DNA from: Truepera sp.
Lineage (GTDB): Bacteria; Deinococcota; Deinococci; Deinococcales; Trueperaceae
DNA length: 64,000 nt
Assembly: GCA_965218435.1 (NCBI GenBank)
Contig: CBDCKW010000009.1
Location: forward strand, 2,048,001 to 2,112,000
Direction: 5' to 3'
Shown: one piece after another, positions 7,564-21,296 of the stretch
Layout: each line of letters begins with the position of its first letter
Position numbering within the stretch: the first letter of the stretch is position 1
Program-made: the position numbers and the translations under genes
The notes under the pieces: generated by a model
Seen by the model: the letters and a program-made list of their open reading frames with translations, nothing else
Database searches by the model: none
Told to the model about the DNA's origin: nothing

Positions 7564-7620
7564 ACGGCTTTTCTTTGGTAGCGATGAAGAGACTTGAACT
7601 CTTGACCTCACGATTATGAG
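7564..7620. repeat. att site: displaced 3' part of tRNA(CAT), 57-bp direct repeat of 21208-21264
   Basis: acggcttttctttggtagcgatg...cacgattatgag identical at both ends; identity stops at the anticodon loop. Confidence 0.95.
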
Positions 7621-7744
7621 AAGTATATGAGCCCTAATGTATCGCACCATGCTCTGATGGGCTGTGATAGAAAGCCCGTTATAGGCGCATTTCTACCCTT
7701 TGCTCTGCCTCTCGTTCAATGTCTCATCACGCTAGGTAACGCGG

Positions 7745-7779
7745 CTGTAGGTGTAAATAATGTGTAACTCAGGTGCAGG
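7745..7779 (+). repeat. Putative integrase arm-type sites (left end)
   Basis: ctgtAGGTGTAAataATGTGTAActcAGGTGCAg; matches 21129-21154. Confidence 0.65.
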
Positions 7780-7853
7780 CTTTGGGGGGCGTTTACCCCG
7801 TTATGGACGCCGAGGCCATCACAAAACGTAGCGAAACATGGTAAAATTAGAGC

Positions 7854-8354
7854 ATGACGGCGGCGATACCTTACGACGAACTTACGCTTGACGAACTGCT
7901 CGAGCGTGTTGAGCGTATCGTCAGCCGCGCTGAACGGACGCTTACGAAGGGTAAGCCCCGCCGTCTATCCGCCGCCGAACTTGAGCGGGAAAACCGGATG
8001 CGTTCCGTGGTTTTTTGTGCCCCCAAGAATCTTTACTCAAAACGCTGGCAGTCTACTAGCAACTGGCAGGCTTCACTGCCTTCAGCCCTCGGCAGTTTGG
8101 GGACGATAAGGAACATGCGTAAGCTGAACCGCGCGGTTTTTGAGCTTACGCGCATGTTCGCTTGTTCAATACCAAAGGCGCTGTTACAAAAAGTTTTCGC
8201 GCTCATCTTATCGCTCGTTTTTGGTATTGGACTTGAGGACGATACCCCGGAACTGCCTGACGAGCACCGTGATATTGACGTTACACCGCGCCCCGAACCG
8301 CCGTTAAGCAGAATTCCTAAAGCTTTACCTAACGCTCCAAACGCACTGATTTAA
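7854..8354 (+). CDS. Hypothetical protein, first gene of the element
   Basis: 166-aa ORF; extended -10 TGgTAAAAT 6 nt before ATG (leaderless). Confidence 0.6.
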   Translation: MTAAIPYDELTLDELLERVERIVSRAERTLTKGKPRRLSAAELERENRMRSVVFCAPKNLYSKRWQSTSNWQASLPSALGSLGTIRNMRKLNRAVFELTRMFACSIPKALLQKVFALILSLVFGIGLEDDTPELPDEHRDIDVTPRPEPPLSRIPKALPNAPNALI

Positions 8355-8409
8355 GTTTGCGCAGGTCACACCTGCTGGCTTAAATCTCTACCGTGATTTA
8401 TAAATCACG
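8348..8409. promoter_or_regulatory. Hairpin plus perfect 18-bp palindrome upstream of the xis-like gene
   Basis: GATTTAAG..GCAGGT-cac-ACCTGC..CTTAAATC and CGTGATTTATAAATCACG (8392-8409). Confidence 0.55.
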
Positions 8410-8426
8410 TGCGTTTGGAGTTTTTT

Positions 8427-8630
8427 ATGACAATGGAACCGAAGGGCTCGAGCCCTTTTTACAGTTATCCCGAGCTTTGGGAAGCGAACGAGAAAAAAAT
8501 CGGCATCAACACGCTGAGGGCTTGGGGACGTTCAAAGAAGCTGAAGACCGTAAGGGTCGGCAGAAAAATCCTAGTGCCCAAAAGCGAACTTGACCGCCTT
8601 GTGGAAATCGCCGGAGGCGACGACTTATGA
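8427..8630 (+). CDS. Excisionase/MerR-like winged-HTH protein
   Basis: IGINTLRAW...LKTVRVGRKILVPKSELDRL; GGAG RBS. Confidence 0.8.
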   Translation: MTMEPKGSSPFYSYPELWEANEKKIGINTLRAWGRSKKLKTVRVGRKILVPKSELDRLVEIAGGDDL

Positions 8631-8824
8631 AAAATCCCCATCTCGGGCAAGATGGGGACGCGGCGATTCGTAAGGAAAGTTTATCACAAGTCGTTATCTG
8701 CCCCTTTGCTCCCGAATGCTTAAAAAAATGGATTCACCTTGTCGGTACAGAAACGGCAGACTGCCAAAACTTCAGCCGTGCAGACATGGCGAGGATTTTG
8801 GCGGGGGTCGCTGGTGGACGCTAA
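8627..8824 (+). CDS. Small hypothetical protein
   Basis: ATGA overlap with the upstream gene; overlaps the primase start. Confidence 0.5.
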   Translation: MKNPHLGQDGDAAIRKESLSQVVICPFAPECLKKWIHLVGTETADCQNFSRADMARILAGVAGGR

Positions 8825-11207
8825 CCTTACCGACCACCACCGCAAGATGCTCGAGACCGAAAGCGGTATCAGCCCTAAAGTCATAGAATCACGTGGCTAC
8901 CGCACTGTTACCGTCAAAGCCGACCTCGCTAAACTCGGCTTTGCCCTTAGTCAGCAAAGCGTTACGGCCCTGCTCATCCCGATTCACGACCCGACCGGGC
9001 ACGTTGGAACCTACCAACTGAGGCCCGACAAACCGCGCACGATTAAAGGTCAGGGCAAAGAACGGATAGTTAAATACGAGACCGTCAAAGGCTCGAGCCT
9101 CACCCTTGACGTAAACCCGTTGTCACTCAACAAACTAGGCGACCCGGCCACGCCTTTGTGTATCACCGAGGGCTCAAAAAAGGTTGACGCACTCGCGTCT
9201 CGCGGCCTCTGTGCGCTTGGGCTTATGGGCGTGTGGGGCTGGAGGGGGACGAATCCGAACGGCGGCAAAACTGCGCTGCCTGCCTGGGAAAACGTAGCTT
9301 TGAACGGGCGCACCGTTTACCTTTGCTTTGATTCGGATGTCACGACGAAGCGTGAAGTTTACGCTGCGCTCGAGCGGCTTAAAGCGTTCTTAGAGTCTCG
9401 TGGTGCATCCGTCCGCATCATCTATCTACCCGACGATGGCGACGCGAAAACTGGCGTTGACGACTACCTCGTTCAGGGTCACGACGTTGGCGACCTCTTG
9501 AAACTCGCTTCAGATGAGCTTAAGCCACCACCCCACGATAACGTAAGCTCAGATGAAATCGTCATCAACCGTCAGGTCAAAGAGGTTGTGACCGACATCT
9601 CGACTCGGCTTAAAGGCTTAGAGCTTAACGGGCAACCGCTCATTTATTCACGTGGCGACGGGCTCTTGGTGGAGATGCGCGAAGGTTTCGAGCTGAGAGA
9701 AATCACTAAGCCCGACAGTCTTAAGGCATTACTACATGACCACCTCGAGCCCGTCTTGGAAAAGACGCTGCAAAGCGGTGAGGTCATCACGACCCCTTCA
9801 GTTTTCAGCGCGAATCACACGGCGCTGCTGACGCGCAAGACTGCAGAGTTTCCGCCGATTAAAGCAGTGAGCGACATCCCTTTGATGCTCCCAAATGGGG
9901 CGATTTTAAGCGAGCCTGGATACCACCGAGAGCACGAGCATTTTCTCAACACTGCCGGGATAACAGTTGAACTTATGCCCTGGCAAGAGGCTCGAGCCCT
10001 ATTCCTGGAAACGTTTAACGAGTTTTCTTACCAAGCGCCGAAAGCTGGGTTCACAGCTACTTTGGCGTTCGTTTTGCAGGCCTTTTTGATGCTGGTCATA
10101 GACGACCACACACCCTTATACGCGATACTCGGCTCCAGACGCGCCGGGAGCGGAACGGGTAAGGGTTACCTACTCGACTGCATTTACCGGATTCAGCGGG
10201 GCCGTCCTTATACTCACGACGGCGCGATGCCCGCAACAGATGAAGAGATGGGTAAAGTCCTCTTCTCAGCTTTAAGTGAAGGTGCCTCGCACATCATCTT
10301 TGATGATATTGACCACCTGAAACACCGTCAGCTTATGGCAGCCATCACGAGCCGGACGTACAAGGGCCGCATCCTGGGGGTAAGTCAACGCCATGAGGTG
10401 AGCACGGCTGTCACCTGGGCCGTATCGGGCAACGCGCCCGATATTCACCGGGACTTTTATAGGCGCGTCATCCCGATTTATCTCGGTGTCGGTAAAGCCC
10501 GCGCATGGGAGCGTTCCTATACCCGGCCTGACCTCAACCGCTACATCCTAGAAAACCGGAACCTTTACATCTCGGCTGCACTCAGCATCTTGGAACACTG
10601 GCGTTCTCTTGGAATGCCTCTCTCTACGGGGGTCATACGGGGGTTTGACCGGTGGTCTGCGGTGATGGGCGGGGTACTCGAGTCCATCGGGCTAACGCAC
10701 CTTTTAGAAGCCCGTGTTGGTCTCGACACGCTTATAGAGGTGGACAACTCAGACTTAGACCTATTGATAGACGCTTGGCAAGGGTGCAGCTTAGCGGACA
10801 AAAAACTGAAGGGCAAAGACCTCTTGAACCTTGCCGCAGGGCATGAGCTATTCACTGAACTTTATGAAGGGCGAACAGAGGCAGCCGGTGCCGGTGAGTT
10901 GGGCAAGTTCTTGAAACCCTACGCGAACGATGTTTTTAAGGGTCACTATCTGCGCCGTGAGTTTGATTCGGACTCTAAGACCTGGCGCTACTTTTTAGAG
11001 CCGGTGCCCGATGCACCGAAACTACTTTCCGAGGTGTTTAATTTCTCAGCTCTTGAAACTTCGGCTGAACACCCCCGTGAGACCCCCGTAAACCTAGAAG
11101 GCGGTGAGGTTACGGGGGTGCTACGGGGGTCTGGCGGCGAAGTTTCAAGAGACAAAGATAATGACGAACTCTCCTACCTTGTCGGTAGTACGGAGGGTGA
11201 GCTGTGA
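8814..11207 (+). CDS. DUF3854 (TOPRIM-like) primase fused to a P-loop NTPase/helicase; replication protein
   Basis: ITEGSKK..GVWGW, CFDSD, KTGVDDYL; Walker A GSGTGKG, Walker B IIFDD; GTG start at 8814 inferred. Confidence 0.85.
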   Translation: MDANLTDHHRKMLETESGISPKVIESRGYRTVTVKADLAKLGFALSQQSVTALLIPIHDPTGHVGTYQLRPDKPRTIKGQGKERIVKYETVKGSSLTLDVNPLSLNKLGDPATPLCITEGSKKVDALASRGLCALGLMGVWGWRGTNPNGGKTALPAWENVALNGRTVYLCFDSDVTTKREVYAALERLKAFLESRGASVRIIYLPDDGDAKTGVDDYLVQGHDVGDLLKLASDELKPPPHDNVSSDEIVINRQVKEVVTDISTRLKGLELNGQPLIYSRGDGLLVEMREGFELREITKPDSLKALLHDHLEPVLEKTLQSGEVITTPSVFSANHTALLTRKTAEFPPIKAVSDIPLMLPNGAILSEPGYHREHEHFLNTAGITVELMPWQEARALFLETFNEFSYQAPKAGFTATLAFVLQAFLMLVIDDHTPLYAILGSRRAGSGTGKGYLLDCIYRIQRGRPYTHDGAMPATDEEMGKVLFSALSEGASHIIFDDIDHLKHRQLMAAITSRTYKGRILGVSQRHEVSTAVTWAVSGNAPDIHRDFYRRVIPIYLGVGKARAWERSYTRPDLNRYILENRNLYISAALSILEHWRSLGMPLSTGVIRGFDRWSAVMGGVLESIGLTHLLEARVGLDTLIEVDNSDLDLLIDAWQGCSLADKKLKGKDLLNLAAGHELFTELYEGRTEAAGAGELGKFLKPYANDVFKGHYLRREFDSDSKTWRYFLEPVPDAPKLLSEVFNFSALETSAEHPRETPVNLEGGEVTGVLRGSGGEVSRDKDNDELSYLVGSTEGEL
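10625..11151. repeat. Iteron pairs (ACGGGGGT) and ~100-bp palindrome; putative replication origin
   Basis: Pairs at 10625/10636, 11071/11082 (inverted), 11111/11122; 14-bp outer inverted repeat 11050-63/11138-51. Confidence 0.65.
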
Positions 11208-11572
11208 CCTTAAGAGAAAAGCTCGAGCATCAAGGGGTGACCCTTGCCCCTAAGCTCACCTACCAAAGTGCCGCGCCCCTAGACGCTGAAACACTCGCAC
11301 TACTCAAAACCCATAAAGACGACCTGCTGAGAGACCTTATCGTCTCGACCGGATACAGCACCCCGGAACGTCTGCCCTGGCAGTTGGAACGCCTCATCAG
11401 CGCCGCGTGTGCCGACGCGCTGCCCCAAGGCACGGTCACACTACCCTCTGGACTCGTGCCCGACCTTAATCGTTATGTTTTAGGTTGGGGTTGCAGCTAT
11501 CTTGTCAGCGACCGTATAGAAGCCGAAAAGCGTCTCTGGGAAGCCTACCGAGCGTGGCAGGGGGTCAACTGA
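11204..11572 (+). CDS. Hypothetical protein
   Basis: GTGA overlap with the primase gene, GGAGG RBS. Confidence 0.7.
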   Translation: MTLREKLEHQGVTLAPKLTYQSAAPLDAETLALLKTHKDDLLRDLIVSTGYSTPERLPWQLERLISAACADALPQGTVTLPSGLVPDLNRYVLGWGCSYLVSDRIEAEKRLWEAYRAWQGVN

Positions 11573-11573
11573 G

Positions 11574-11804
11574 ATGCCCCGCAAAACACTTCCGGCACAA
11601 CCGCCGCTCTTCCCTAAACGGACGATTACGCCGATTAAAGAAGGTGACGCCCTAGATTTCGCCGACCTTGCACCCTACCTTTACCGCTGTCGGTGCGGAC
11701 ACCGTGCCGAAACCCGTAAGCCTTTACCGGCTGTGACCTGCTCAAAATGCGGCGCTGCAATGCCGCTCGACTCTGAAGCCTCAGCCCACTTACGAAAGGA
11801 TTGA
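11574..11804 (+). CDS. Small zinc-ribbon protein
   Basis: CRCGH...CSKC; tightly packed in the operon. Confidence 0.6.
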   Translation: MPRKTLPAQPPLFPKRTITPIKEGDALDFADLAPYLYRCRCGHRAETRKPLPAVTCSKCGAAMPLDSEASAHLRKD

Positions 11805-12244
11805 CCATGACCGACATTCATAATCTCCATTATAAACTCTCCGAAGCGACCGCCGAATTGACGCAGATTCGGGAACGCCGCACTACTCTCGAGGCTGAAC
11901 TTGCCACCCTCACGCCGCTGGAAACCGAGCTGAGCAATCGGGCTACATCCTTAACGGCTGAACTCCAGCGCCTCGAGCCACCCGCCCCGCGTCCTCAAGA
12001 CGTTGAACGCCTTGCGAGGCTGACCGAAGCCTTGCGTTCTAAGCTCTCTGAAGCCGACCGCCGTTCACCGACCGTTCAACGGGTCAGGGCTAGTCTCGAG
12101 CGTCTCACCGACGAAAGCGTGACCGTCTCCGACCGCTTAAGCCTCGCCTTATCCCTGCTTGACGACCTTAAGAATCACTATCAGCTCGACCGTCGACTTT
12201 GGGATAAAGCTGAAGGTCACAACGCTGCTCAAAGGGGTCGCTAA
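11801..12244 (+). CDS. Coiled-coil hypothetical protein
   Basis: Heptad-rich L/E sequence; AAGGA RBS. Confidence 0.65.
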   Translation: MTMTDIHNLHYKLSEATAELTQIRERRTTLEAELATLTPLETELSNRATSLTAELQRLEPPAPRPQDVERLARLTEALRSKLSEADRRSPTVQRVRASLERLTDESVTVSDRLSLALSLLDDLKNHYQLDRRLWDKAEGHNAAQRGR

Positions 12245-12246
12245 TC

Positions 12247-12729
12247 ATGCCCCGTGTTTGCACTATCTGTAGCCACGCTGAACGCGATTCTGTTGACCTC
12301 CTCTTGCTCGAGGGGGCGTCAATACGCGCCATAGCGCGACAGTTTTCACTGAGCAAAGATGCGCTTTCACGCCATAAAGAGAGTCATCTGCCCGGACAAC
12401 TTGCACGGGCTCATGAGGCGAGCGAAGCCGTCAGCGCCGGTACGCTTTTAGACCGGTTGAGGCAGATAACCAGCGAGACTCACGCCGTCTTAAAAGCATC
12501 GAAGCAGGGTAAAAATCCCGAGCTTTCCTTGAAAGCAATCGCTCGACTTGAACGTCAGCTCGAGCTTGAAGCCCGGATGTTGGGAGAGCTTCAGGACAGC
12601 GCCACCACGACGATAAATGTTTACAGCACCCCGGAATGGCTCGTTTTGAGGTCTACCATCCTGAGCGCCTTGACACCTTTTCCAGACGCGGCGAAGGCTG
12701 TAGGAGCGGCCTTGAATGAACATAGTTGA
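12247..12729 (+). CDS. Zn-finger/HTH protein, putative terminase small subunit
   Basis: CTICSH, HTH SIRAIARQFSLSKDALSRH, helical C-terminus; directly upstream of and overlapping the TerL ATPase gene. Confidence 0.65.
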   Translation: MPRVCTICSHAERDSVDLLLLEGASIRAIARQFSLSKDALSRHKESHLPGQLARAHEASEAVSAGTLLDRLRQITSETHAVLKASKQGKNPELSLKAIARLERQLELEARMLGELQDSATTTINVYSTPEWLVLRSTILSALTPFPDAAKAVGAALNEHS

Positions 12730-13477
12730 CGATTTGAGATTTGCCTTAGACCCGGCTGTTTTTGCACTCGAGGCGCTAGGTTTAAGGCTAGACCCGTGGC
12801 AACGCGAGGCAGTCAGCTCAGCTTCAAAACGCGACCTTTTTAACTGCGCACGTCAATCTGGAAAATCAACCGGGGCGGCGGTAATCGCTCTGCATGAGGC
12901 TTTGTACAAACCGGGTTCACTTACCCTGCTTATCTCACCTTCACAGCGGCAATCATCGGAATTATTCCGCAAGGTCACAGAACTTCGGGAACTGCTACCG
13001 ACCGCACCGGAATTGACAGAGGACAACAAGCTCAGCTTGACGATTCAAGGCGGCGGTAGAGTCCTCTCCCTACCCGGTTCCGAGCAAACGATTCGGGGCT
13101 TCTCAGGTGCAACCTTAGCGGTACTGGACGAAGCAAGCCGCATACCTGACGAGTTGTACTTCAGCGTCCGGCCCATGCTTGCAACCCGTCAGGGGCGCAT
13201 GATTCTGATGAGCACACCTTTTGGGAAAAGAGGCTTTTTTTGGGCTGAATGGTCTGGAATCTCCCCCTGGAACCGGGTAGAAATCCCGGCTTCAGCCGTG
13301 CCGAGAATTACCCCGGAGTTTCTAGCGGAGGAAAAGGCGAGCCTGGGCGATTGGTGGTTTCGCCAAGAATACGGCTGTCAATTTTTGGAATCTACCGATT
13401 CGGTATTCTCCCATGACTCGGTGATGAACGCGCTCGACGATAGCGTCAAACCCTTGTTTGGAGACTCCCATGCTTGA
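12716..13477 (+). CDS. Terminase large subunit, stand-alone ATPase domain
   Basis: Q-motif DPWQ, Walker A ARQSGKST, Walker B AVLDEA, motif III STP, FRQEYGCQF. Confidence 0.9.
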   Translation: MNIVDDLRFALDPAVFALEALGLRLDPWQREAVSSASKRDLFNCARQSGKSTGAAVIALHEALYKPGSLTLLISPSQRQSSELFRKVTELRELLPTAPELTEDNKLSLTIQGGGRVLSLPGSEQTIRGFSGATLAVLDEASRIPDELYFSVRPMLATRQGRMILMSTPFGKRGFFWAEWSGISPWNRVEIPASAVPRITPEFLAEEKASLGDWWFRQEYGCQFLESTDSVFSHDSVMNALDDSVKPLFGDSHA

Positions 13478-14180: not shown

Positions 14181-14294
14181 CGCAAAACTTACGCGAGAGC
14201 TCGAGGCACGACTCATCCGCAGCACTCAGCACACGACAGGCGAGCTGCCAACGGTTCACAATGACACCTCTCAGGCCTCGAGCAGTCCTAACCC

Positions 14295-14331: not shown

Positions 14332-14363
14332 ACACCTTTACATTCGATTAGTGGACTAGCGTG

Positions 14364-14798
14364 CTAGGTCGCTTCAAAGTATTCGTCTAGAACAATGGTT
14401 TTCAAAGCTATCAAGGTATCCGCGATTATTAGGTGGTGGCGTTGTTGAGATGCCGACCCAAATTGCTTTTTTAAGAAGTCGGTGCACAAATCCGATTTCG
14501 TTCTAAAAGCCTTCGCGCTACTGGCTTCGATAGCCAAGCTTAAAATTCTTTGAGTCTCTCGACCAAACTGAATACTGAAGCCCAACTTATCCTGATAGAC
14601 GTGCCCTGCACGTTCTTGTGTGTCGTACACGTAATCAACCTTTAGGATGTCGCTATCTATCCTCGCCTCCGCATTCTCAGGCAGATAGATATGTGACAGC
14701 GTCCGAATCTCATACTGTCGTTTTCCTAAAAGCGGGTTTGCGTCCGATGTTGCGTGCCTTCCACCGAACGATAGCGGCAGCTTTTGCGTCTCGGTCAC
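14364..14798 (-). CDS. Hypothetical protein, partner of the 2TM-GAF-like gene
   Basis: 144-aa ORF 9 nt downstream of the upstream gene, GGAG RBS. Confidence 0.65.
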   Translation of the reverse strand: MTETQKLPLSFGGRHATSDANPLLGKRQYEIRTLSHIYLPENAEARIDSDILKVDYVYDTQERAGHVYQDKLGFSIQFGRETQRILSLAIEASSAKAFRTKSDLCTDFLKKQFGSASQQRHHLIIADTLIALKTIVLDEYFEAT

Positions 14799-14807
14799 GG
14801 GCGGCTC

Positions 14808-15662
14808 CTAAAGGGTTCGATTTAACATTGTAGCGTAGTCGTCAATCCTTCTTTGTACGCTTGGCTTATCAAAAGGACAACGTTCCTGAACGCTGTCGAT
14901 AACGAGTACCCCAACGCGGGCGCTCGTTTTTGGGTTGACTAACGGTACAGCATGAAAGTGCCGAGCGATGACATGAAGCCGTTTCACAGTAGCTGGCGTT
15001 GAATAGGTTTCAAGTAAATAGGTATGGACTTGAGCAGGCATCGGCCCGTCGAGATGCAGAGCAGAAAGGTCGAGGGCGCGGATGTCAGGCAAGTCGCGTT
15101 TTGTGACTACATCGCCTGTTTGCATGACATGAGAAGCGACGCTCTCGCAATCCTCTCTTGTTGCAGGGTTGTAATGGAAAAATGTACCCGAGTTATTGTA
15201 CTCGGTTCCTATTCTCTGAGTGATGTGGACAAACCGATACTGAAAAATCTTACGCGGCTTCATCCGCGTGCTTTTCTTGCGCCCTCTAGCTCGCCGATTA
15301 CACGTCATAATGAAGACCTGAACCCATATATATCGGGCCATCCACCAATTTGCTTTTCTAAAAATCGTTATGCGAAGTTCAGTTTTTTCATTGTCGAATA
15401 GCTCGGAGCGCATATCCTCTAAAATAGCCTCTCGAATTCTCCGCAGTTTTCCACGGGGTTCAGCGAAAAAGCCGCCCCAACTATTGATTATTACGGACAC
15501 AGTTATTAGAGCCGCAATTATCCACCATTTATGCGTAAAGGCGAAATCATTAAGCGCCTGCTGTATCGGGTCAGGGTACTTAGCAGGTTTGACCTGCGCA
15601 AAAAATGCTGTGGCGATAGTTACAAGAGTAAGTATGACGACAAGCCAAAGGGGACGACGCAT
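14808..15662 (-). CDS. 2TM protein with C-terminal GAF-like domain (candidate defence protein)
   Basis: Two N-terminal TM helices; ELRITIFR, FHAVPLV...VGVLVIDS GAF-like strands; start at 15662 inferred. Confidence 0.65.
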   Translation of the reverse strand: MRRPLWLVVILTLVTIATAFFAQVKPAKYPDPIQQALNDFAFTHKWWIIAALITVSVIINSWGGFFAEPRGKLRRIREAILEDMRSELFDNEKTELRITIFRKANWWMARYIWVQVFIMTCNRRARGRKKSTRMKPRKIFQYRFVHITQRIGTEYNNSGTFFHYNPATREDCESVASHVMQTGDVVTKRDLPDIRALDLSALHLDGPMPAQVHTYLLETYSTPATVKRLHVIARHFHAVPLVNPKTSARVGVLVIDSVQERCPFDKPSVQRRIDDYATMLNRTL

Positions 15663-15790
15663 ATAAAGTTCGTTACCACTATACCTTAACTCTTCTAACA
15701 TGACGTAAACAGACCTTAGTTCCATTAAAAGAGTGCTTATACACCGTTTTGGTGTTAATTCCTTGTACAACAACATGGTGTAATAACGTT

Positions 15791-16027
15791 ATGAATAGAC
15801 AAGTACGTAGTGCTGCCCGCCAAGCCGTTTCGGGGCAGGGGCTTACCCAAGATAAGCTCGCCAAGCGTGCGGGGCTGTCGCAGCAAGCGGTAAGCCGCAT
15901 CCTCAACAACGACCGTACGGGCAACCCAGATTCTTGGGATAGAATCCTCGACGCCCTCGACCTAAAACTCGCCGCGATACCAAAGAACGCAGACATCGAA
16001 CAACTCTTCGACAGGAAAGGGGAATAA
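15791..16027 (+). CDS. XRE/Cro-type HTH regulator
   Basis: LTQDKLAKRAGLSQQAVSRILN. Confidence 0.85.
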   Translation: MNRQVRSAARQAVSGQGLTQDKLAKRAGLSQQAVSRILNNDRTGNPDSWDRILDALDLKLAAIPKNADIEQLFDRKGE

Positions 16028-16029
16028 AT

Positions 16030-16773
16030 ATGGCACGACGGCGCACAAGCAAACGGGCAAAAAATGAGGGCTCAGTCTTCGAGCTACCAAATGGCACATG
16101 GCGGGGCAAGGTCACGACCGGTTATGACGACGAAGGTAAGTAAAAGTTCCGTTGGGTCTCAGGTAAAACGCAGGGTGAGGCGCTGGCTAAAGTAGCGGAG
16201 ATAAAGCAGCGGCTTGTGAGCGGCACCTATACCGATACTAAGCTCACGGTAGCGGAATATCTTGAACGGTGGCTAGAGGAGAAGAAGCGCACGCTAAAAG
16301 CCTCTACGCTGGAACAGTACGAAAGTTGCATCAACTGTTCAATCGTGCCGCTAATCGGTAAGGTCAAACTCGACAAGCTCACACCTTTACAGGTGCAAAA
16401 CCTTGTGAACGGGATACACGACGTTTCAGGAGCCGCTCGAGCTGCAAAGTGTCGCACTGTCCTCTTCAGCGCCTATAAACAGGCGATTCGCTGGCAACTC
16501 GTGACCCGGAACCCGGTAGAGGCAACCGACCCGGTAAAGGAACCGCATCGGGAGATGACCTTATGGGAGCCGGAACAAGCGGCGCGGTTTCTCGACACCG
16601 CCCGGTCACACCGGCTGTTCGCGTTCTTTTACCTGAGCATGGCGACCGGCCTACGCCGTGGGGAGCTGCTAGGTCTGCGTTGGGTTGATATAGAGGGGAA
16701 CCTGCTACACGTCAAGCAAACACTCGTTAAGGTTGGGAGTAAGCTTATCCTCTCAACACCGAAAACGCGCTAA
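16030..16773 (+). pseudogene. Tyrosine integrase pseudogene (internal TAA at 16141, truncated after PKTR)
   Basis: NEGSVFE...GTYTDTKLTVAEYLERW...TGLRRGELLGLRW; close paralog of 19932-21125. Confidence 0.92.
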
Positions 16774-16836
16774 GGCTCGAGCCAGTAGCCTTACTTAAAG
16801 GAAAACACTTGAGCAAACATATAGAGAGAGGATTAG

Positions 16837-17709
16837 ATGACGATTTCAGAAGCGTTTGAAACGTTTTTAAGGAATCTCGAGGTTAAAAATCAAGACGACA
16901 TCCGCTTGCGTTACCGAAACATCACTAAAAGTGTAAACCGGGAATTCAGAGGTTCTGACTCGGAAACTGAGAACAGTTTATATCTTGGCTCTTACGCTAG
17001 AAACACTGCCATTAACGGCTTCAGCGACCTAGACATGGCTGTTATTTTGCCAGAGGCTGAGAAGGAGCGAGTCGAGAGCATCTACACCTATCCTCAGAGC
17101 GCGCTCCTAAGAAGTGTAAAGACGGCTTTGGAAAAAACCTACCCGCGAACTGAGATGCGGGCGGACGGACAAGTAGTAGTAGTGCTGTTTAGCGACGGGA
17201 TGCAGATTGAGGTTGTCCCGTTCATAGAACGGTCAAGCTCGCGTGGCTTCTACTTCCCGGACACGCACGACGACGGCTCCTGGAAAGAAACCGACCCAAA
17301 AGGCGAGCAAGAAACGTTTTTCGACCTAAGCCGGATTGCGAATGGAAACGCTGTAAAAATAGGCCGCATTATGAGGGCTTGGCGCAGGAAGCACAATGTA
17401 CCTATTAGCGGTATCCTATTAGATACCTTTATAACCCGGTTTTTGATTGAAAACCATTATGGGTTTGGTTCGTTTTATATGTGTGATTGGATTTGCCGAG
17501 ATTTTTTTCGTTACTTGTCGGAATTGCCGAAGCGGGGAGCATGGTCATCGCCGCGACACACTTACATGATAAAAGAGAAAGGAGATTTCCGACCCTCGGC
17601 TCGTGAGGCTTACAACATCACCCAAGAGGTTAAGAGTTCAATCGAATTTGACTTTGATGATTGCTGGGAATGGAGACGTATTTTCGGTGACGATTTCCCA
17701 CTCACCTAA
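16837..17709 (+). CDS. SMODS / CD-NTase-like nucleotidyltransferase
   Basis: GSYARNTAI..SDLDM, DGQVVVV, IEVVP, FPDTHDDGSWKETDP, WRRIFG. Confidence 0.88.
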   Translation: MTISEAFETFLRNLEVKNQDDIRLRYRNITKSVNREFRGSDSETENSLYLGSYARNTAINGFSDLDMAVILPEAEKERVESIYTYPQSALLRSVKTALEKTYPRTEMRADGQVVVVLFSDGMQIEVVPFIERSSSRGFYFPDTHDDGSWKETDPKGEQETFFDLSRIANGNAVKIGRIMRAWRRKHNVPISGILLDTFITRFLIENHYGFGSFYMCDWICRDFFRYLSELPKRGAWSSPRHTYMIKEKGDFRPSAREAYNITQEVKSSIEFDFDDCWEWRRIFGDDFPLT

Positions 17710-18301
17710 CGACCACAACATGCTAGAAGCTCAGCTTCGTGAGGTCTACGGGCGCATCGTTTACACGCACAAGACCCACGAAAAGATGGCTGACCTCCTC
17801 ACGTCTAGATACAACGTGACTCAGTGGATTCAAACGATTTTGTCTGGCCTGACGACCACTAGCTTGCTAGTCGTCATATTTGGCAATTCGGAGATGGGCG
17901 CTGTTATCGCAGCCTTTCTTTCGGCCTTTCTATTCATGGTCAACCTTTATCTACAGAACAATAATCTAGGCCAAAGAGTCGAGCGGCATACGGAAGTCGC
18001 GGCGGTCTTATGGGGCATCCGGGAAAGCTATCTAACGCTCATCACCGACTTACTAACCCCTGTCCCAAACATTGATTACATCAAGGCGGAACGGGATAGG
18101 TTACAAGACATAAGTGAAAGGGTATTTCGCAACGCGCCGCGTACCAATGCAAAGGCATATAGGTTGGCTCAAAATGCCTTGAAAAATAATGAGGAACTTA
18201 CCTTCAGTGAAGACGAGCTCGACCTATTGTTGCCGGAAGAGTTGAGGAAAGGTAAGCGCAGAAAGAGGATGAGTAACAGCGACACTGAACAGCCCAGCTG
18301 A
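17687..18301 (+). CDS. SLATT-family 2TM effector
   Basis: QLREVYGRIVYTHKTHEK, two TM helices, LWGIRESYL, APRT; overlaps the NTase stop; GTG start inferred. Confidence 0.82.
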   Translation: MTISHSPNDHNMLEAQLREVYGRIVYTHKTHEKMADLLTSRYNVTQWIQTILSGLTTTSLLVVIFGNSEMGAVIAAFLSAFLFMVNLYLQNNNLGQRVERHTEVAAVLWGIRESYLTLITDLLTPVPNIDYIKAERDRLQDISERVFRNAPRTNAKAYRLAQNALKNNEELTFSEDELDLLLPEELRKGKRRKRMSNSDTEQPS

Positions 18302-18430: not shown

Positions 18431-18763
18431 TCAGGCCGCTTCTCTAAAGGGCTCGAGTGCCCTCATCTGATACCGGGCTAAATCCCACTCTAGCCGTGCT
18501 CCCTCATACGCGCATAGGGCCTCTGTCAGCGCGTCTTCAGCTTCAGCGAGCGCGGTGTACTCAGCACTCAGCTCGAGCCGTAGCTTAGCCGTCCGCTCCC
18601 GTTCATTCTTACCGTCTACCCCGGCGCACAGTTTCAGGGCTTCAGCGTGCTCGAGCGTCCGCTTGGCTTCAGCGTGAGCAGTGACCGAGCCGCACAGGTT
18701 GATTTGAGCATCCTCTAAACCGTTCTTAGCGCAGCGCAGTTGGGAGAGAAGAGTGGCGCTCAC
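18431..18763 (-). CDS. Phage-like coiled-coil hypothetical protein
   Basis: GVDGKNERERTAKL; GTGA overlap with the upstream gene. Confidence 0.6.
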   Translation of the reverse strand: MSATLLSQLRCAKNGLEDAQINLCGSVTAHAEAKRTLEHAEALKLCAGVDGKNERERTAKLRLELSAEYTALAEAEDALTEALCAYEGARLEWDLARYQMRALEPFREAA

Positions 18764-18951
18764 GCCGCCTCTCCCCAAAAATCATAGTCAGGTACTTCGT
18801 CTTGGATGATTGGAGGCAGTTCATCACCTGTGCCACCCGAAGGGTCGGTATCTGCCCCGTCGTCTTCAGCTGCCAACTCTGCGTAAAGCGCCTGTAAATC
18901 CTCTTCACGGTCGCTGTACATCTCGACATCTACAAAGTAGAAGGGGCTCAT
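18760..18951 (-). CDS. Small acidic hypothetical protein
   Basis: TAATG coupling upstream; ends in GEAA, which supplies the next RBS. Confidence 0.55.
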   Translation of the reverse strand: MSPFYFVDVEMYSDREEDLQALYAELAAEDDGADTDPSGGTGDELPPIIQDEVPDYDFWGEAA

Positions 18952-19157
18952 TACAGAGCCCGTCCCGCAACGCGTACCGCTGCTTTGATGGTGCTGTGCT
19001 TGGACACAAGGTTAAAAGCTGAGTCAAAAACCTCCCAGACCGTGCCCCAAGTTTGGAGGCAACCGACGACTTCAGCGCCGCGCATGAGGTCATACGCCTT
19101 AACGGGGGTGCGGTAGCTTGCGCCGTCTTGCTTGTGGAGGGTGATGGTATTGTTCAC
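18951..19157 (-). CDS. Small hypothetical protein, first gene of the leftward operon
   Basis: GGAG RBS; downstream of a near-consensus promoter. Confidence 0.6.
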   Translation of the reverse strand: MNNTITLHKQDGASYRTPVKAYDLMRGAEVVGCLQTWGTVWEVFDSAFNLVSKHSTIKAAVRVAGRAL

Positions 19158-19218
19158 TTTAGAACTCCGTTTCTAGTTAGAGGCTGTACTTTTCGAGGGT
19201 CTGCCTCTAACTGCCTTT

Positions 19219-19247
19219 AGTTTATCAGGTATCGGCTAAACTGTCAA
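19219..19247 (-). promoter_or_regulatory. Strong sigma70-type leftward promoter
   Basis: TTGACA-17bp-TAAACT with TG extension. Confidence 0.75.
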
Positions 19248-19285
19248 GCATGTACAGCTTAAGCTAAATGTGCTAAGCTACTAAT

Positions 19286-19624
19286 ATGAAATGGAAACTG
19301 AAAGACTACTTAGAGCAACACGACATCACCGCACATCAATTGGCCCTCGAGTCAAAGCTCAGTCTGAACAGTGTTTACCCGGCAGTCCGGGGGCAAGCCG
19401 AGCGTGTCAGTTTGGCAACGCTTGACCGGATGCTTACGGCGCTCGACAAGCTGACGGGTGAGCGGGCAGAGCTGGGGGATGTACTTGAGCGAGAAGATGA
19501 CGCTTATGAGTTTCCGGGTGAGGTTCCAGCGGACATCCGCGAACGAATAGAACGATTTGAACGGGGTGAAGTGAAGCTTATCCCAGCTGCGGATATTGCC
19601 GCCAAATACGGCGTCAAACGTTGA
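19286..19624 (+). CDS. Cro/C1 HTH repressor with antitoxin-like C-terminal tail
   Basis: WKLKDYLEQHDITAHQLA HTH; C-terminus IERFERGEVKLIPAADIAAKYG; overlaps relE. Confidence 0.8.
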   Translation: MKWKLKDYLEQHDITAHQLALESKLSLNSVYPAVRGQAERVSLATLDRMLTALDKLTGERAELGDVLEREDDAYEFPGEVPADIRERIERFERGEVKLIPAADIAAKYGVKR

Positions 19625-19929
19625 CTTATGAGGTCATCTTCACCGATGAGGTAGATAGAGACTTAGAGGCGATTACCGATGTACGAACCCGTAACGCAGT
19701 CATTCGTAAAGCTCTTGACCTCGACACCGAACCCGACAAGCAAGGAAAAACGCTAGGCGGCAATCTAGCAGCTTACCGGGTCGTCAGAGCCGCAGGGCAA
19801 CGCTACCGGGTGGTCTATCAGATAGCGAGTCTCGAGGGTGTGGTCACTGTGGTGGTGGTAGGTATCCGCAAAGAAGGCGACAAGAGAGACGTGTACCGAG
19901 TAGCGAGCAAACGGTTAGGAAAGGGGTAA
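19621..19929 (+). CDS. RelE/ParE family toxin
   Basis: YEVIFT, QGKTLGGNL..YR, QRYRVVYQI, VVGIRKEG. Confidence 0.85.
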   Translation: MTYEVIFTDEVDRDLEAITDVRTRNAVIRKALDLDTEPDKQGKTLGGNLAAYRVVRAAGQRYRVVYQIASLEGVVTVVVVGIRKEGDKRDVYRVASKRLGKG

Positions 19930-19931
19930 CG

Positions 19932-21125
19932 ATGCCAAGACGTAAGAGCACGAGACGCGGTAAGGGTGAGGGTTCTGTCTTTGAGTTTGAACGGAATTAC
20001 AAAAAGCAAGACGGCTCTATCGTCGTCCGTTCCGGCTGGGAGGGTAAGGTTACGGTCGGTTATGACGAAAACGGTAAGCAACGTTTCAAGAGCGTGTATG
20101 GCAAAACGCAGAATGAAGCTCTAGCTAAAATTGCTGAGATTAAACAGCGTCTTATGAACGGCACCTATTCAGATACCAAGTTGACGGTCGCCGAATACCT
20201 TGAGCAGTGGTTAAGAGAGAAAGAGCGCAGCGTCAAGGAACGAACAGCGATGCTCTACCGGGAACAAGCCGAGCGGTACGTTATCCGCAAGATAGGCAGT
20301 GTCAAGCTCGAGAAGCTCACGCCCTTACACCTTCAGCGGATGATTAGCGAACTCGCTGACGAAATCGGCGTCCCGACCGCGAACAAAGCCCGCACCCTGA
20401 TGTTCGCCGCGTTAAAGCAAGCGGTGCGGTGGCAGCTCATTCACCGGAACCCATGTGAAGCTGTCGCTAAGCTTAAAGAGACCCGTAAAGAGATGACGCT
20501 ATGGACGCCCGCCGAAACCTTGAAGTTCTTAGGAGCGGCCCGACCCCACCGTTTATACGCCGCGTTCTATCTGGCTGTGTTTGCCGGACTCCGTAGAGGT
20601 GAGCTGTTAGGGCTACGTTGGAAAGACCTCACCGGCCCCGTGCTGAGCGTCAAGCAATCCCTGACCGTCTTAGGCGGTACACCGCACTTCACAACACCCA
20701 AGACCCGTAAAGGTGAGCGGCACATCACCGTCTCCCCTGACGTGCTCGAGGTACTCGCACAGCACCGGCTGATTCAAGAGGCAGAGGCTAAAGCTTTAGG
20801 CGACGCCTGGACAGATTCCGGGCTCATCTTTGCAACTGAAGTTGGAACGCTCATTCACCCCCGGAACTTTGAACGCACATTCAAAGACCTGCTTAAGACT
20901 GCCGACGTAACGAAGGCCCGGTTGCACGACCTGAGACACTTGCACGTCTCGCTACTCGTTTCTAAAGGGTTTGACCCGCGTTCAATCGCCGACCGGGTAG
21001 GCCATACGAACCCGAGCTTCACAATGGACGTGTACAGCCATATGTTTGCAACGCAGAGAGCGCAGGCCGCTGTCGGCATGGCTGACCTACTCGGAACCGA
21101 CGCGAGACAGGAAAAACTGAATTAA
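19932..21125 (+). CDS. Tyrosine integrase (intact)
   Basis: GLRRGE, PKT, HDLRH, VGH, YSH catalytic set; N-terminal arm-binding domain; next to att. Confidence 0.95.
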   Translation: MPRRKSTRRGKGEGSVFEFERNYKKQDGSIVVRSGWEGKVTVGYDENGKQRFKSVYGKTQNEALAKIAEIKQRLMNGTYSDTKLTVAEYLEQWLREKERSVKERTAMLYREQAERYVIRKIGSVKLEKLTPLHLQRMISELADEIGVPTANKARTLMFAALKQAVRWQLIHRNPCEAVAKLKETRKEMTLWTPAETLKFLGAARPHRLYAAFYLAVFAGLRRGELLGLRWKDLTGPVLSVKQSLTVLGGTPHFTTPKTRKGERHITVSPDVLEVLAQHRLIQEAEAKALGDAWTDSGLIFATEVGTLIHPRNFERTFKDLLKTADVTKARLHDLRHLHVSLLVSKGFDPRSIADRVGHTNPSFTMDVYSHMFATQRAQAAVGMADLLGTDARQEKLN

Positions 21126-21128
21126 ACC

Positions 21129-21154
21129 CTGTAGGTGTAATTAAGGTGTAAACC
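21129..21154 (+). repeat. Putative integrase arm-type sites (right end)
   Basis: ctgtAGGTGTAAttaAGGTGTAAacc. Confidence 0.65.
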
Positions 21155-21167
21155 GGCACACAAGAGA

Positions 21168-21198
21168 AGCGCCCCACACTTAGCGGGGCGCTCTTTTT
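21168..21198. terminator. Hairpin between the integrase and the tRNA
   Basis: AGCGCCCC-9nt-GGGGCGCT-CTTTTT. Confidence 0.65.
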
Positions 21199-21219
21199 GC
21201 GTCTCTGACGGCTTTTCTT

Positions 21220-21296
21220 TGGTAGCGATGAAGAGACTTGAACTCTTGACCTCACGATTATGAGTCGTGCGCTCTAACCAGCTGAGCTACATCGCC
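21220..21296 (-). tRNA. tRNA with CAT anticodon (probably elongator tRNA-Met)
   Basis: GGCGATGTAGCTCAGCTGGTTAGAGCGCACGA-CTCATAA-TCGTGAGGTCAAGAGTTCAAGTCTCTTCATCGCTACCA. Confidence 0.95.

Follow-up and report, generated by a model that had tools for sequence, protein, structure and literature searches.

Analysis of the window, the full 64,000-nt stretch of Truepera sp. DNA, revealed a ∼13.6-kb island that is inserted at a tRNA-Met gene and that encodes a TerS-like protein, a terminase ATPase and a terminase nuclease. Its anatomy is, as far as sequence can tell, typical of satellites, with an integrase, an Xis-like HTH protein, a primase-helicase with associated repeats, packaging genes and defence cargo. 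We cautiously favor the reading that the island is a phage satellite that would use a terminase of its own to fill helper procapsids with island DNA, where packaging, induction and the helper are all presumed. The island family is widespread in bacteria and archaea and apparently undescribed; the literature searched contained no description of a capsid-less satellite class with its own terminase.

The island is flanked by 70-nt direct repeats. The attR copy (21195-21264) overlaps the 3′ part of the insertion site, the tRNA-Met(cat) gene on the minus strand at 21220-21296, and the attL copy (7551-7620) reproduces the 3′ part of that gene together with downstream bases, with 96% identity to 21195-21264. 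Reading of both sequences showed that the final 53 nt of the copies are identical. Hence, the att sites that had been proposed on both sides from the sequence alone are indeed present. A pair of 23-nt repeats (family D16, 91% identity) lies inside attL at 7745-7767 and inside attR at 21129-21151 and is a candidate arm-type site for the integrase. The latter, an intact tyrosine integrase of 397 aa, is encoded on the plus strand at 19932-21125 (Phage_integrase, 6.4e-18; phrog_1, 2e-69), and these matches make it an integrase of the kind required of a PICI.

The island is not a single clean element. A second, truncated tyrosine integrase (185 aa; 16216-16773, plus strand), which the sequence-only reading had overlooked, was identified from Pfam and PHROGs matches and from a DNA repeat shared with the intact gene. 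Its DNA is 74% identical to that of the intact integrase, with homology from position 16099 onward, and it shows 90% identity to the integrase of the sibling island L170. The presence of this truncated second integrase indicates that the island is composite. A second backbone module, consisting of a 115-aa ORF on the minus strand and small ORFs, is found at 18431-19220; it is common to the island family of this genome and is 76-81% identical in DNA to at least five other places in the genome, with protein identities of 74-82%. The left two thirds of the island (∼7621-16800) would belong to a widespread family of small terminase islands that replicate themselves, and the right third, with CBASS, the backbone module, a toxin-antitoxin pair and the intact integrase, would derive from a second, related island backbone that supplied the working integrase. 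Because the island is composite and one integrase is broken, the window copy may be less mobile than its relatives.

The three terminase genes lie consecutively on the plus strand. The TerS-like protein (160 aa; 12247-12729) combines an N-terminal Cys/His and HTH region with a long helical hairpin and short C-terminal helices. It gave a weak Pfam match to HTH_38 and no match to a TerS family in Pfam, PHROGs or NCBIfam, but along its entire length it shares 38% identity with the ORF that immediately precedes TerL in the phages Riverbug and MMP17, and tblastn located homologues at 72 loci. Its structure model (pLDDT 84.8) shows an HTH and a helical hairpin; Foldseek returned no match at E ≤ 0.001 (best E 0.3, with TerS entries among the weak rows only), and VIA-align returned generic helical hairpins only. 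A complex of the TerS-like protein with the ATPase was predicted with weak support, at an ipSAE of 0.51 (runs of 0.51, 0.51 and 0.54) against a best of three of 0.01 for the controls, with at least 92% of contacts in agreement between runs and a partner pLDDT of at least 69. Of 157 solved complexes in the calibration of this score, 116 attained the mark, as did 2 of 215 mismatched pairs, and at ipSAE ≤ 0.60 only 18 of the 157 solved complexes reach it, together with both passing mismatches. The position, the phage homologues and the model suit a small terminase subunit, and the assignment as TerS, which rests on position, architecture and this weak complex score, is putative. The remainder of the gene content first proposed, namely integrase, primase, TerL ATPase and nuclease, and defence cargo, was confirmed, with subthreshold matches for the Xis-like HTH.

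The TerL ATPase is a separate protein of 253 aa (12716-13477; Terminase_6N, 7.9e-11) that matches phrog_7579 (1.6e-61) across positions 2-238 of the 239-position profile and is 48% identical to the 417-aa Riverbug TerL across residues 3-231 of the latter. Profile searches matched it to the P74-26 TerL ATPase (4zni, 2.7e-18) and also to the ATPase domain of T4 gp17. Residues R46, Q47, G49, K50 and S51, D138 and E139, and S166, T167 and P168 are invariant in 26 sequences, and we take these groups to be Walker A, Walker B and the STP coupling motif of a TerL ASCE ATPase. The TerL nuclease, of RNase H-like type, is likewise a separate protein (236 aa; 13470-14180, with an alternative TTG start at 13458). 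It matches phrog_27743 (1.6e-37), falls just below the cut-off for Terminase_6C (2.4e-4; 21.5 bits against 22.6 bits) and matches the nuclease of G20c (5m1f, 1.6e-7), with G20c and P74-26 matches ranging from 1.5e-7 to 3.3e-7. Of the acidic residues, D123 and D224/D225 do not vary among 17 sequences and D31 scarcely does, in keeping with a TerL RNase H-like nuclease. With its conserved motifs, coupled genes and TerL domains as nearest solved relatives, the window terminase looks functional.

TerL is thus not a single polypeptide in this island. The ATPase and nuclease ORFs are in different frames and overlap by 8 nt (ATG at 13470, TGA at 13475-13477), and the nuclease has its own start, with a GGAG 7 nt upstream of that ATG. 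Among the loci, the junction between the two genes varies, with overlaps, gaps and even intervening ORFs, and nuclease homologues of near length outnumber longer ones by 1718 to 4; the tool rates a small number of longer proteins as weak evidence. A lesion as the cause of the split was considered and rejected, because the genes are translationally coupled, the catalytic motifs are kept and real phages have the split as well; it is not special to satellites.

The ORFs from 8409 to 14367 overlap or abut at spacings of −17 to +2 nt and none is interrupted, which agrees with the original description of the core as a tightly coupled, lesion-free operon. The first of them (8409-8630, plus strand) encodes a 73-aa excisionase/AlpA-like HTH protein, with subthreshold matches to HTH_17 (6.4e-6; 26.8 bits, cut-off 27) and to the TIGR01764 excisionase domain (3.8e-5, under its cut-off); it is a candidate for the regulation module of a PICI, which calls for an AlpA, MerR or Stl homologue. 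Further along is an 822-aa primase-helicase (8739-11207, plus strand) with a DUF3854 Toprim-like N-terminal part (1.6e-22) and a C-terminal NTPase part, which also matches phrog_16213 DNA primase (1.8e-12) and phrog_10537 (1.5e-44). Within the 3′ end of this gene, six copies of TACGGGGGT form three 11-nt-phased pairs, at 10625/10636 (plus), 11071/11082 (minus) and 11111/11122 (plus). This iteron-like cluster (10625-11130; also family D18) gathers, in 506 nt, five of the eight exact copies in the window and one single-mismatch copy, and is a candidate origin. The iterons ascribed to the primase were in this way confirmed in part, as a repeat cluster, and together with the primase matches they give the island the primase-replicase module of a PICI.

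A 166-aa ORF at 7854-8354 (plus strand) belongs to no family and had no match in Pfam, PHROGs, PADLOC or NCBIfam. Two small plus-strand ORFs follow the primase gene at 11204-11804: one of 122 aa, with a homologue in L170 after its DUF3987 protein, and one of 76 aa, zinc-ribbon-like, with homologues in the sibling island L172 and on contig C8. A coiled-coil ORF of 147 aa (11801-12244, plus strand) immediately precedes the TerS-like gene and has weak coiled-coil-type matches only in Pfam, PHROGs and NCBIfam; its C-terminal 97 aa are 61% identical to a stretch upstream of the TerS-like gene of L006, a second island of this genome (tblastn). The accessory block at 14164-16027 comprises ORFs of 67 aa (plus), 144 aa (minus) and 322/297 aa (minus), and a 92-aa HTH protein (15749-16027, plus) homologous to the gene preceding the integrase in L017, L066 and L189. 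The 322/297-aa protein has two hydrophobic helices at its N terminus, and its resemblance to GAF-type clusters in the ESM Atlas (score 0.97) is no more than a lead; the model of the 297-aa form, at pLDDT 35, gave no usable fold. Further right, a CBASS cyclase (16837-17709, plus strand; SMODS, 1.5e-40; PADLOC Cyclase, 5.2e-90) and a 2TM SLATT effector (17603-18301, plus strand; SLATT_4, 4.3e-60; PADLOC Effector 2TM, 4.2e-71) provide the oligonucleotide cyclase and 2TM effector of a type I CBASS at 16837-18301. Pfam and PHROGs matches identified the toxin-antitoxin pair as an HTH_26 antitoxin-like gene and a ParE/RelE-like toxin gene (19286-19929, plus strand).

None of the 21 island ORFs matched a portal, capsid, scaffold, protease, connector, tail or lysis family in Pfam or PHROGs (E ≤ 0.01), so the claim that the island lacks portal, capsid, tail and lysis genes stands at this level of detection; TerL is the only head-related PHROGs match. 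Likewise, no cfPICI-type capsid, head-tail adaptor or connector was found in these 21 ORFs or in the 74 ORFs of five related islands. PHROG sensitivity is imperfect, as some portal-sized ORFs in clearly phage-like contigs went unmatched. This, and the family-less ORFs in the window (166, 122, 147, 144 and 322 aa) and in L024 and L043, could be taken to suggest a very small autonomous virus with capsid and portal genes too divergent for recognition. We consider such a virus extremely improbable, because the minimal islands L006 and L084 have no family-less ORF of portal size (none exceeds 235 aa), the only large family-less ORF of the window begins with two hydrophobic helices and has the GAF-type resemblance (a lead only), and terminases of this lineage are known to act at a portal vertex. 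In L024 and L043, the family-less ORF, of 348-358 aa, is located at the attL end.

The terminase locus recurs well beyond this genome. One-genome-per-species contigs from bacterial and archaeal genomes yielded 342 loci, of which the best 80 were retained. Of these best 80 of 342, 43 had at least 6 kb downstream and could be scored (265 ORFs scanned), and 42 of the 43 have no portal, scaffold or capsid gene downstream; the sole scorable locus with all three is L081. Four further att-bounded islands were found (9.7-12.7 kb, with att repeats of 45-56 nt), and in these and L006, with 74 ORFs between them, the terminase genes are the only "head and packaging" matches. The synteny search that had been suggested as a check thus showed the arrangement to recur without head genes in other att-bounded islands. 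In 12 of the 32 loci scanned, and in L006, the nuclease gene is followed by a minus-strand tRNA gene, 0.2-5.8 kb away in those 12 loci; islands with a visible end, carrying a full terminase and no virion genes, appear mostly to sit at a tRNA gene. A recognized primase, helicase or polymerase domain occurs upstream in 18 of the 43 loci, of varied type (Toprim/DnaG, NrS-1 primpol, D5_N, DUF3854, AAA_25/DnaB, RepB and PolA), and linkage of the motor to an integrase and a replication module spans at least 14 phyla.

Between headless islands, dN/dS is 0.05-0.28 for the ATPase (13 pairs with a value), 0.10-0.24 for the nuclease (18 pairs) and 0.09-0.30 for the TerS-like protein (4 pairs), ratios by which these genes are under purifying selection. 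The recurrence in small islands without head genes and the dN/dS values of 0.05-0.30 argue that the family is not decaying prophage debris. A deletion relic, meaning a prophage stripped of its head and tail genes with the terminase genes on their way out, would account for the truncated integrase in the window, for a decayed copy elsewhere in the genome and for distant homologues in full phages with head genes (L081 and the IMG/VR contigs described below). We judge it very unlikely, and for the family as a whole it is already disfavoured: apart from the selection, the catalytic motifs are intact, two intact copies that are 59-61% identical coexist in one genome with different replication modules, and att-bounded islands of 9.7-13.6 kb, in which a tRNA gene follows the nuclease gene at 0.2-5.8 kb, offer no space where lost modules could have been.

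Among cultured phages, Thermus phage Riverbug (PQ109080) and Meiothermus phage MMP17, both with a fused TerL, carry the nearest relatives of the ATPase. Relative to these and MMP7, identity is 46-48% for the island ATPase, 37-38% for the TerS-like protein (against the ORF immediately before TerL) and 29% for the nuclease (against the C terminus of TerL). In the phages, however, TerL is a single protein of 415-417 aa, and its gene precedes those for portal, minor head, protease and major head proteins; in the island nuclease, a stretch of additional, variable sequence separates the first and second conserved blocks. Uncultured phages in IMG/VR share the split into an ATPase ORF and a nuclease ORF, often with the same TerS-like gene upstream, but differ in what comes next: of 54 classifiable contigs (nuclease homologues 32-48% identical, 80 kept), 45 have head genes, for portal, head morphogenesis, protease or capsid, no more than 6 kb downstream of the nuclease. 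Close homologues in full prophages had been named as evidence against a new class; what was found are distant homologues only, and in the nuclease tree the window falls in a six-row clade (support 86) in which all six are headless, again at odds with a relic. Elsewhere in the tree, phage and headless labels are interleaved (14 changes of the phage label, at least 4 of them forced), which indicates that headless islands arose, or swapped modules, several times and are not one lineage.

Within this genome, L006 carries an intact TerS-like/ATPase/nuclease set, 43%, 61% and 59% identical, respectively, to that of the window island, in the matching order up to integrase and tRNA, with a different replication module (DnaG-type primase and AAA_25 helicase). 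The decayed copy, L007, has stops in the ATPase and a nuclease in pieces. The nuclease profile is present in 2 of 40 other relatives and in none of five genomes of the same genus, a variable presence that speaks for the satellite reading. In the window island, the replication genes and the 115-aa backbone gene enclose the trio, and the corresponding slot in siblings holds defence systems, namely type I R-M with PIN (L170), SIR2 (L172) and DUF4238 (C8). A role in defence or interference is possible on this ground, and the CBASS and toxin-antitoxin pair of the window island point the same way. The trio could have been repurposed to interfere with phages, by cutting their concatemers, occupying portals or titrating procapsids without productive transfer, or to process the island's own replicated DNA for a non-capsid route. 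In favor of the satellite reading, a resident helper is not visible: the genome, which is 100% complete, has no match to the portal and HK97 capsid profiles tried (Phage_capsid PF05065, Phage_portal PF04860, phrog_12 and phrog_533), tblastn with the portal, capsid and head genes of Riverbug and MMP17 found none of them in it, and its only two Terminase_6N matches are those of the two islands. The lack of helper-type portal and capsid genes fits repurposing as well. So does the finding that five other island-bearing genomes have no second related ATPase that would mark a cognate resident helper, which speaks against the satellite reading. We nevertheless regard repurposing as rather unlikely, since no PADLOC model matches the TerS-like protein, ATPase or nuclease of either island and the entire motor (Walker A/B, STP, nuclease and TerS-like partner) is kept and linked to integrase and replication genes across those phyla, as a transfer function predicts. 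Interference also belongs to the satellite model, so the two readings overlap.

As a satellite, the island would operate as follows. The integrase and the excisionase-like HTH protein, flanked by the att repeats read in the sequence, would allow excision, and the circle would be replicated by the primase-helicase from the iteron-like cluster within its gene. Upon infection by a helper tailed phage, the TerS-like protein would recognize a site on island DNA, and the ATPase and nuclease proteins would assemble into a split TerL that attaches to the portal of the helper, cleaves concatemers of the island and drives them into helper procapsids, with helper tails and lysis releasing transducing particles. 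The terminase module was probably acquired from a phage clade whose members have Mu-like head modules and frequently a TerL that is split already.

Among known satellites, P4 carries an integrase and a primase-helicase whose gene is linked to an origin, and takes all virion proteins from its helper; it is not known to encode a terminase, uses the cos-specific terminase of the helper and resizes capsids with Sid/Psu. The island resembles P4 in its integrase, its primase-helicase with a gene-linked candidate origin and its presumed helper dependence, and differs in having a terminase. Its resemblance to classical PICIs and SaPIs extends to size (7-13 kb), integrase, AlpA/Xis-like HTH, primase-replicase, accessory defence genes and the lack of structural and lysis genes and, as candidates in the island, to an origin adjacent to the primase-replicase and a packaging-specificity gene, although no capsid-morphogenesis gene (cpm/ppi-type) was recognized in the island. 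By the SatelliteFinder definitions, PICIs encode TerS, have no further structural or packaging genes of phage type and borrow TerL from the helper (PMC10085698), whereas the islands encode an ATPase and a nuclease too. The same study defines cf-PICIs by genes for capsid, head-tail adaptor and connector alongside TerL, and has them steal tails only (PMC10085698). The islands share with cf-PICIs an integrase, a primase-replicase, a large terminase of phage origin and, as candidates, a regulator and a small terminase gene, but have TerL in two genes, and no capsid, portal, adaptor or connector was found in them. The combination of a TerS-like protein and TerL without head genes therefore fits neither PICIs nor cf-PICIs as defined there, as the sequence-only reading had maintained. 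By the account in that study, cf-PICIs acquired capsid and TerL from phages on more than one occasion (de Sousa et al. 2023, SatelliteFinder, PMC10085698), and the nuclease tree indicates the same for the packaging genes of these islands.

Direct repeats of 70 nt (96% identity) at 7551-7620 and 21195-21264 flank the element; their final 53 nt are identical when the two sequences are read. The right one runs into the 3' part of tRNA-Met(cat), a minus-strand gene at 21220-21296. On the plus strand, the repeats enclose a 166-aa ORF of no known family, an excisionase/AlpA-like HTH gene scoring slightly below the Pfam cut-off, an 822-aa DUF3854 primase-helicase, three small ORFs, a 160-aa TerS-like ORF, a 253-aa TerL ATPase and a TerL nuclease of 236/240 aa. 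The ATPase matched Terminase_6N (7.9e-11) and, end to end on a 239-position profile, phrog_7579 (1.6e-61); the nuclease matched phrog_27743 (1.6e-37), with Terminase_6C slightly below cut-off. A few accessory ORFs past the nuclease gene, among them one of 297 aa with a single homologue found and a structure model too poor for use (pLDDT 35), are followed by a truncated integrase, a CBASS cyclase with a 2TM effector, a conserved 115-aa ORF, an HTH and ParE/RelE-like pair and, last, an intact 397-aa integrase. Repeats and family matches agree with the sequence-only reading of an att-bounded island with integrase, Xis-like HTH, primase, TerS-like gene, both TerL halves and defence cargo. That reading had recognized no portal, capsid, tail or lysis gene, and indeed none of the 21 island ORFs matched portal, capsid, scaffold, protease, connector, tail or lysis families in Pfam or PHROGs. 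The tight operon it had placed at 8427-14180 is borne out by ORFs that abut or overlap throughout 8409-14367.

The division of TerL into two polypeptides is evidently no lesion. The ATPase gene runs past the nuclease start (ATG at 13470, with GGAG 7 nt before it) to its own stop (TGA, 13475-13477), the corresponding overlap in L006, a second terminase island of the same genome, is 4 nt, and elsewhere the junction consists of gaps or even holds a small ORF between the genes. Moreover, each TerL half has its own PHROG families. These varied junctions and separate families rule out a programmed frameshift or a pseudogene behind the split. The Walker A, Walker B and STP motifs showed no variation in 26 ATPases, and in 17 nucleases the acidic residues are fully or almost fully conserved. 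Among solved structures, profile searches matched the ATPase to the corresponding domains of P74-26 TerL and T4 gp17, and the nuclease to those of G20c and P74-26 TerL. Nuclease homologues were near-length in 1718 cases and longer in 4, the low count among longer proteins being weak evidence. A variant arrangement was seen in a same-family relative (L189, G015:C23:1001-2341), where the nuclease domain forms the C-terminal half of a 446-aa ORF followed by an HTH gene and an integrase; hhalign found no resemblance between the first 230 aa of this ORF and the ATPase profile (probability 0.07).

Fused relatives of the module occur in phages. Against the fused 415-417-aa TerL of Thermus phage Riverbug and Meiothermus phages MMP17 and MMP7, the ATPase aligns to the N-terminal half at 46-48% identity and the nuclease to the C-terminus at 29%; the TerS-like protein shows 37-38% identity over its full length to the ORF directly upstream of TerL in Riverbug and MMP17. 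In Riverbug and MMP17, unlike in the island, portal, minor head and major head genes come after TerL, with an annotated head-maturation protease in Riverbug. IMG/VR yielded 89 loci with a nuclease relative, of which the best 80 were kept; annotation used PHROG matches of 111 cluster representatives (198 ORFs), extended to cluster members. Head genes (portal, head morphogenesis, protease, capsid) lay within 6 kb downstream in 45 of the 54 classifiable loci, showing that a split TerL is normal in a clade of real phages. The IMG/VR contig L151 (12,762 nt) encodes an integrase, TerS-like protein, ATPase and nuclease, then major-head-like and protease-like genes, and is possibly a cfPICI-like relative of the family. 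Another IMG/VR contig, L104 (13,351 nt), the only one of 51 full-length contigs positive in a terminal repeat search, has a 123-nt direct terminal repeat and is thus circular or terminally redundant; it carries the ATPase, the nuclease, a 570-aa serine recombinase and an AAA_25-type helicase, and BLAST against an assembled set of head proteins found no match in it.

The module also recurs without head genes. At tRNA-Thr, L006 replaces the DUF3854 protein with a DnaG-type primase and an AAA_25 helicase, followed by TerS-like, ATPase and nuclease genes (43, 61 and 59% identity to those of the window), small ORFs, an HTH gene and an integrase, with no further ORF of more than 112 aa. A third terminase copy in this genome, near tRNA-Trp (L007, G000:C9:1382000-1401999, around 9976-10750), is decayed, with TGA and TAA stops in an ATPase fragment and the nuclease in two pieces. 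Among contigs from one genome per species, 342 loci encoded a relative; the 80 best were retained, and they represent no fewer than 14 bacterial phyla together with several methanogenic archaeal families. Where a locus had 6 kb or more of downstream sequence (43 loci), we examined all 265 ORFs of at least 110 aa within 7 kb downstream. Portal, scaffold, capsid and adaptor genes were present in L081 alone, and no portal, scaffold or capsid gene was found in the remaining loci. Four of the 43, from methanogens (L012, L031, L062) and Bradyrhizobium (L023), have a tape-measure-like gene after the terminase trio, accompanied in L023 and L031 by a tail-completion/Neck1-like gene, and all four are without capsid or portal; the same holds for the tape-measure-like gene of an IMG/VR locus, L092. 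Tape-measure genes are described as unusual in satellites in the available part of PMC12822802. The other matches were a tail-fibre-like ORF past the integrase of L008 and, at domain level only, a Hoc-like Ig-type domain in L045 and a LysM/endolysin-type domain past the integrase of L014. Upstream, primase, helicase or polymerase domains of many types were found in 18 of the 43 loci, in a scan covering 47 of the 90 listed ORFs of at least 300 aa.

In 12 of the 32 loci scanned, a minus-strand tRNA gene follows the nuclease gene at a distance of 0.2-5.8 kb, and in 8 of these an integrase lies between the two; a separate scan found the same placement in L006. Four loci are att-bounded islands with 45-56-nt tRNA-end repeats: L017 (12.7 kb), L024 (11.5 kb), L043 (10.0 kb) and L084 (9.7 kb). 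Among the 74 ORFs of at least 60 aa in these four and L006, the only "head and packaging" matches were the terminase genes, and connector, tail and lysis matches were absent. Thus, the synteny check proposed with the sequence-only reading came out in its favor, terminase without head genes being a feature of other att-bounded islands.

We next considered whether the headless islands are deletion debris. Between headless island pairs, dN/dS was 0.05-0.28 for the ATPase (13 pairs with a value), 0.10-0.24 for the nuclease (18 pairs) and 0.09-0.30 for the TerS-like gene (4 pairs), and pairs with unsaturated dS are among the low values. In a FastTree phylogeny of 131 nucleases, headless and phage-linked sequences were interleaved, the phage label changing 14 times, with at least 4 changes forced by well-supported branches. 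Together with the dN/dS values, these interleaved labels indicate that headless islands repeatedly arose, or repeatedly swapped packaging modules with phages, and were afterwards maintained by selection, a picture unlike that of deletion debris. The window's own clade (support 86) comprises the window, L006, one Trueperaceae metagenome-assembled genome (MAG), two loci of a same-family MAG and one Gemmatimonas MAG. The concern that close homologues sit in complete phages, making this copy a relic, applies only to more distant homologues, those in IMG/VR, and fails for the window clade, in which all six members are headless.

The island is composite, a feature overlooked in the earlier reading. 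An integrase fragment of 185 aa (16216-16773; DNA similarity to the intact integrase begins at 16099) is 90% identical to the integrase of L170, an island in the same genome, and is preceded by a 92-aa HTH gene (15749-16027) whose homologues precede the integrase in L017, L066 and L189. The broken integrase thus marks the end of the canonical terminase element, and the part running from CBASS up to the intact integrase belongs to a second backbone. The 115-aa ORF, HTH, ParE-like toxin and integrase of this backbone recur at no fewer than five other places in the genome with 74-92% protein identity. Two sibling islands share the 115-aa ORF, HTH and integrase and carry other cargo where the terminase would be: L170 (G000:C9:984000-1002999), at tRNA-Val, has a DUF3987 protein and type I R-M with PIN, and L172 (G000:C9:2864000-2880999), at tRNA-Ala, has SIR2 and an AAA_25 helicase. 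Contig C8 (L173, 1-20000; 21 kb) consists of two copies of one 10,471-bp unit and is therefore probably an episome in circular form. In common with the window island it has the 115-aa ORF (82% identity), the HTH/ParE-like pair and an Xis-like HTH, and it encodes a 1031-aa Toprim/AAA_30 protein and a DUF4238 protein, without a terminase. A further locus, L171 (G000:C9:766000-781999), looks like another decayed island of this family: its HTH/ParE-like pair is 76-93% identical to the window's, and a group II intron reverse transcriptase/maturase (9449-11155) lies amid integrase fragments.

The sibling islands bear on the main rival explanation, that the terminase has been repurposed for defence or interference, since they keep defence systems in the slot that the trio occupies here; against it, no PADLOC model matches the TerS-like, ATPase or nuclease protein. 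NCBIfam gave no match to these three proteins. On sequence evidence, we lean modestly toward a satellite that packages its own DNA into helper procapsids with its own terminase. From the anatomy, conservation and selection, which are directly established, we infer induction, excision and transfer: the island would excise and then replicate from its own origin, the TerS-like/ATPase/nuclease terminase would load its DNA into helper procapsids by docking on a foreign portal, and the island would thereby be transferred. The TerS-like protein was modeled with a pLDDT of 84.8. Foldseek against the PDB returned nothing at E<=0.001; weak hits (E 0.3-2.3) included Sf6 gp1, G20c TerS and the phage protein 2ao9 among TetR-type regulators, and VIA-align against 48,161 chains gave generic helical hairpins only (Z<=8.1). 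A contact between the TerS-like protein and the ATPase was weakly predicted (ipSAE 0.51 versus 0.01 for the best control; runs agreeing in at least 92% of contacts; partner pLDDT of at least 69). In calibration, 116 of 157 solved complexes attained the ipSAE mark, as did 2 of 215 mismatched pairs; values of 0.60 or less comprised only 18 of those 157 complexes, but both passing mismatches.

The genome, 100% complete by marker genes, gave no match to Phage_capsid, Phage_portal, phrog_12 or phrog_533, for which positive controls matched, and lacks the head genes of Riverbug and MMP17; Portal_Mu (PF06074) and phrog_113 also gave no match, but their controls matched nowhere either. Terminase_6N matched only twice, in the two islands, and no second related ATPase turned up in five other genomes with such islands. 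Thus, any helper would be exogenous or have an unrelated terminase. Of 40 other relatives, 2 matched the nuclease profile, and among 5 genomes of the same genus none did, a patchy distribution that fits a mobile element.

Known satellites divide this labor differently. P4 is not known to carry a terminase, and both P4 and PLE borrow the helper's TerL. As defined for SatelliteFinder in the accessible part of PMC10085698, PICIs borrow the helper TerL and exclude the island, which carries its own, and cfPICIs, which also build their own capsids, exclude it for lack of capsid, adaptor and connector; the misfit to both families noted from sequence is therefore upheld. VEIMEs, which may bear on this comparison, are reported to encode TerS homologues and "motor-like ATPases" (PMC9618062). 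A capsid-less class with TerS and TerL was not found described in the literature searched outside subscription journals, nor in the available portions of PMC10085698, PMC9618062, PMC12822802, PMC11389934, PMC11437467, 10.1101/2020.12.28.424599, 10.1101/2025.02.15.638363 and 10.64898/2026.08.12.739948. We rate the finding as a putative phage satellite with a new hijacking repertoire. More tentatively, the islands may form a cross-domain class of satellites of phages and viruses, in many bacterial phyla and methanogens, whose complete split terminase fills helper procapsids, the helper giving only a portal-bearing shell, tail and lysis. A tape-measure-like and a tail-completion-like gene are additions of some members, chiefly archaeal ones. 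Such an abundant family, with a whole terminase and no other virion part, would bridge TerL-borrowing and capsid-building satellites, extend satellites to at least 14 phyla and methanogenic archaea and count among its members the first satellites that depend on archaeal tailed viruses. The islands would escape detectors based on gene content, such as SatelliteFinder, or be annotated as defective prophages. Terminase-portal docking would be the only specificity link to the helper, a natural experiment offering a clean system for portal recognition by a foreign terminase and a route to study a TerL working as two polypeptides. Because the islands carry defence cargo, here CBASS, their transfer route bears on the spread of defence systems.

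In sequencing run X1, exact-match unitigs had a depth of 71-77 on the left flank (5742-7593) and 36-44 on the island (7591-21237), a hint only that part of the population is without the island, contig depths being neither copy numbers nor cell shares. These data are Logan contigs, in which uncovered stretches in runs X3 and X5 carry no weight; the att core is longer than the word length, so unitigs break there and attB or attP is not visible in any contig. The Rfam scan matched only the tRNA. A promoter scan gave 6 sites, not above chance (7.8 +/- 2.8 expected), and terminator-like sites numbered 25 against 15.5 +/- 3.5 expected. The 3' end of the primase gene holds six copies of the iteron-like 9-mer TACGGGGGT as three 11-nt-phased pairs, and five of the eight exact copies in the window fall inside those 506 nt. 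The other three lie outside the island, at 35403-35438 and 36313-36321, and two of them form an inverted pair 27 nt apart.
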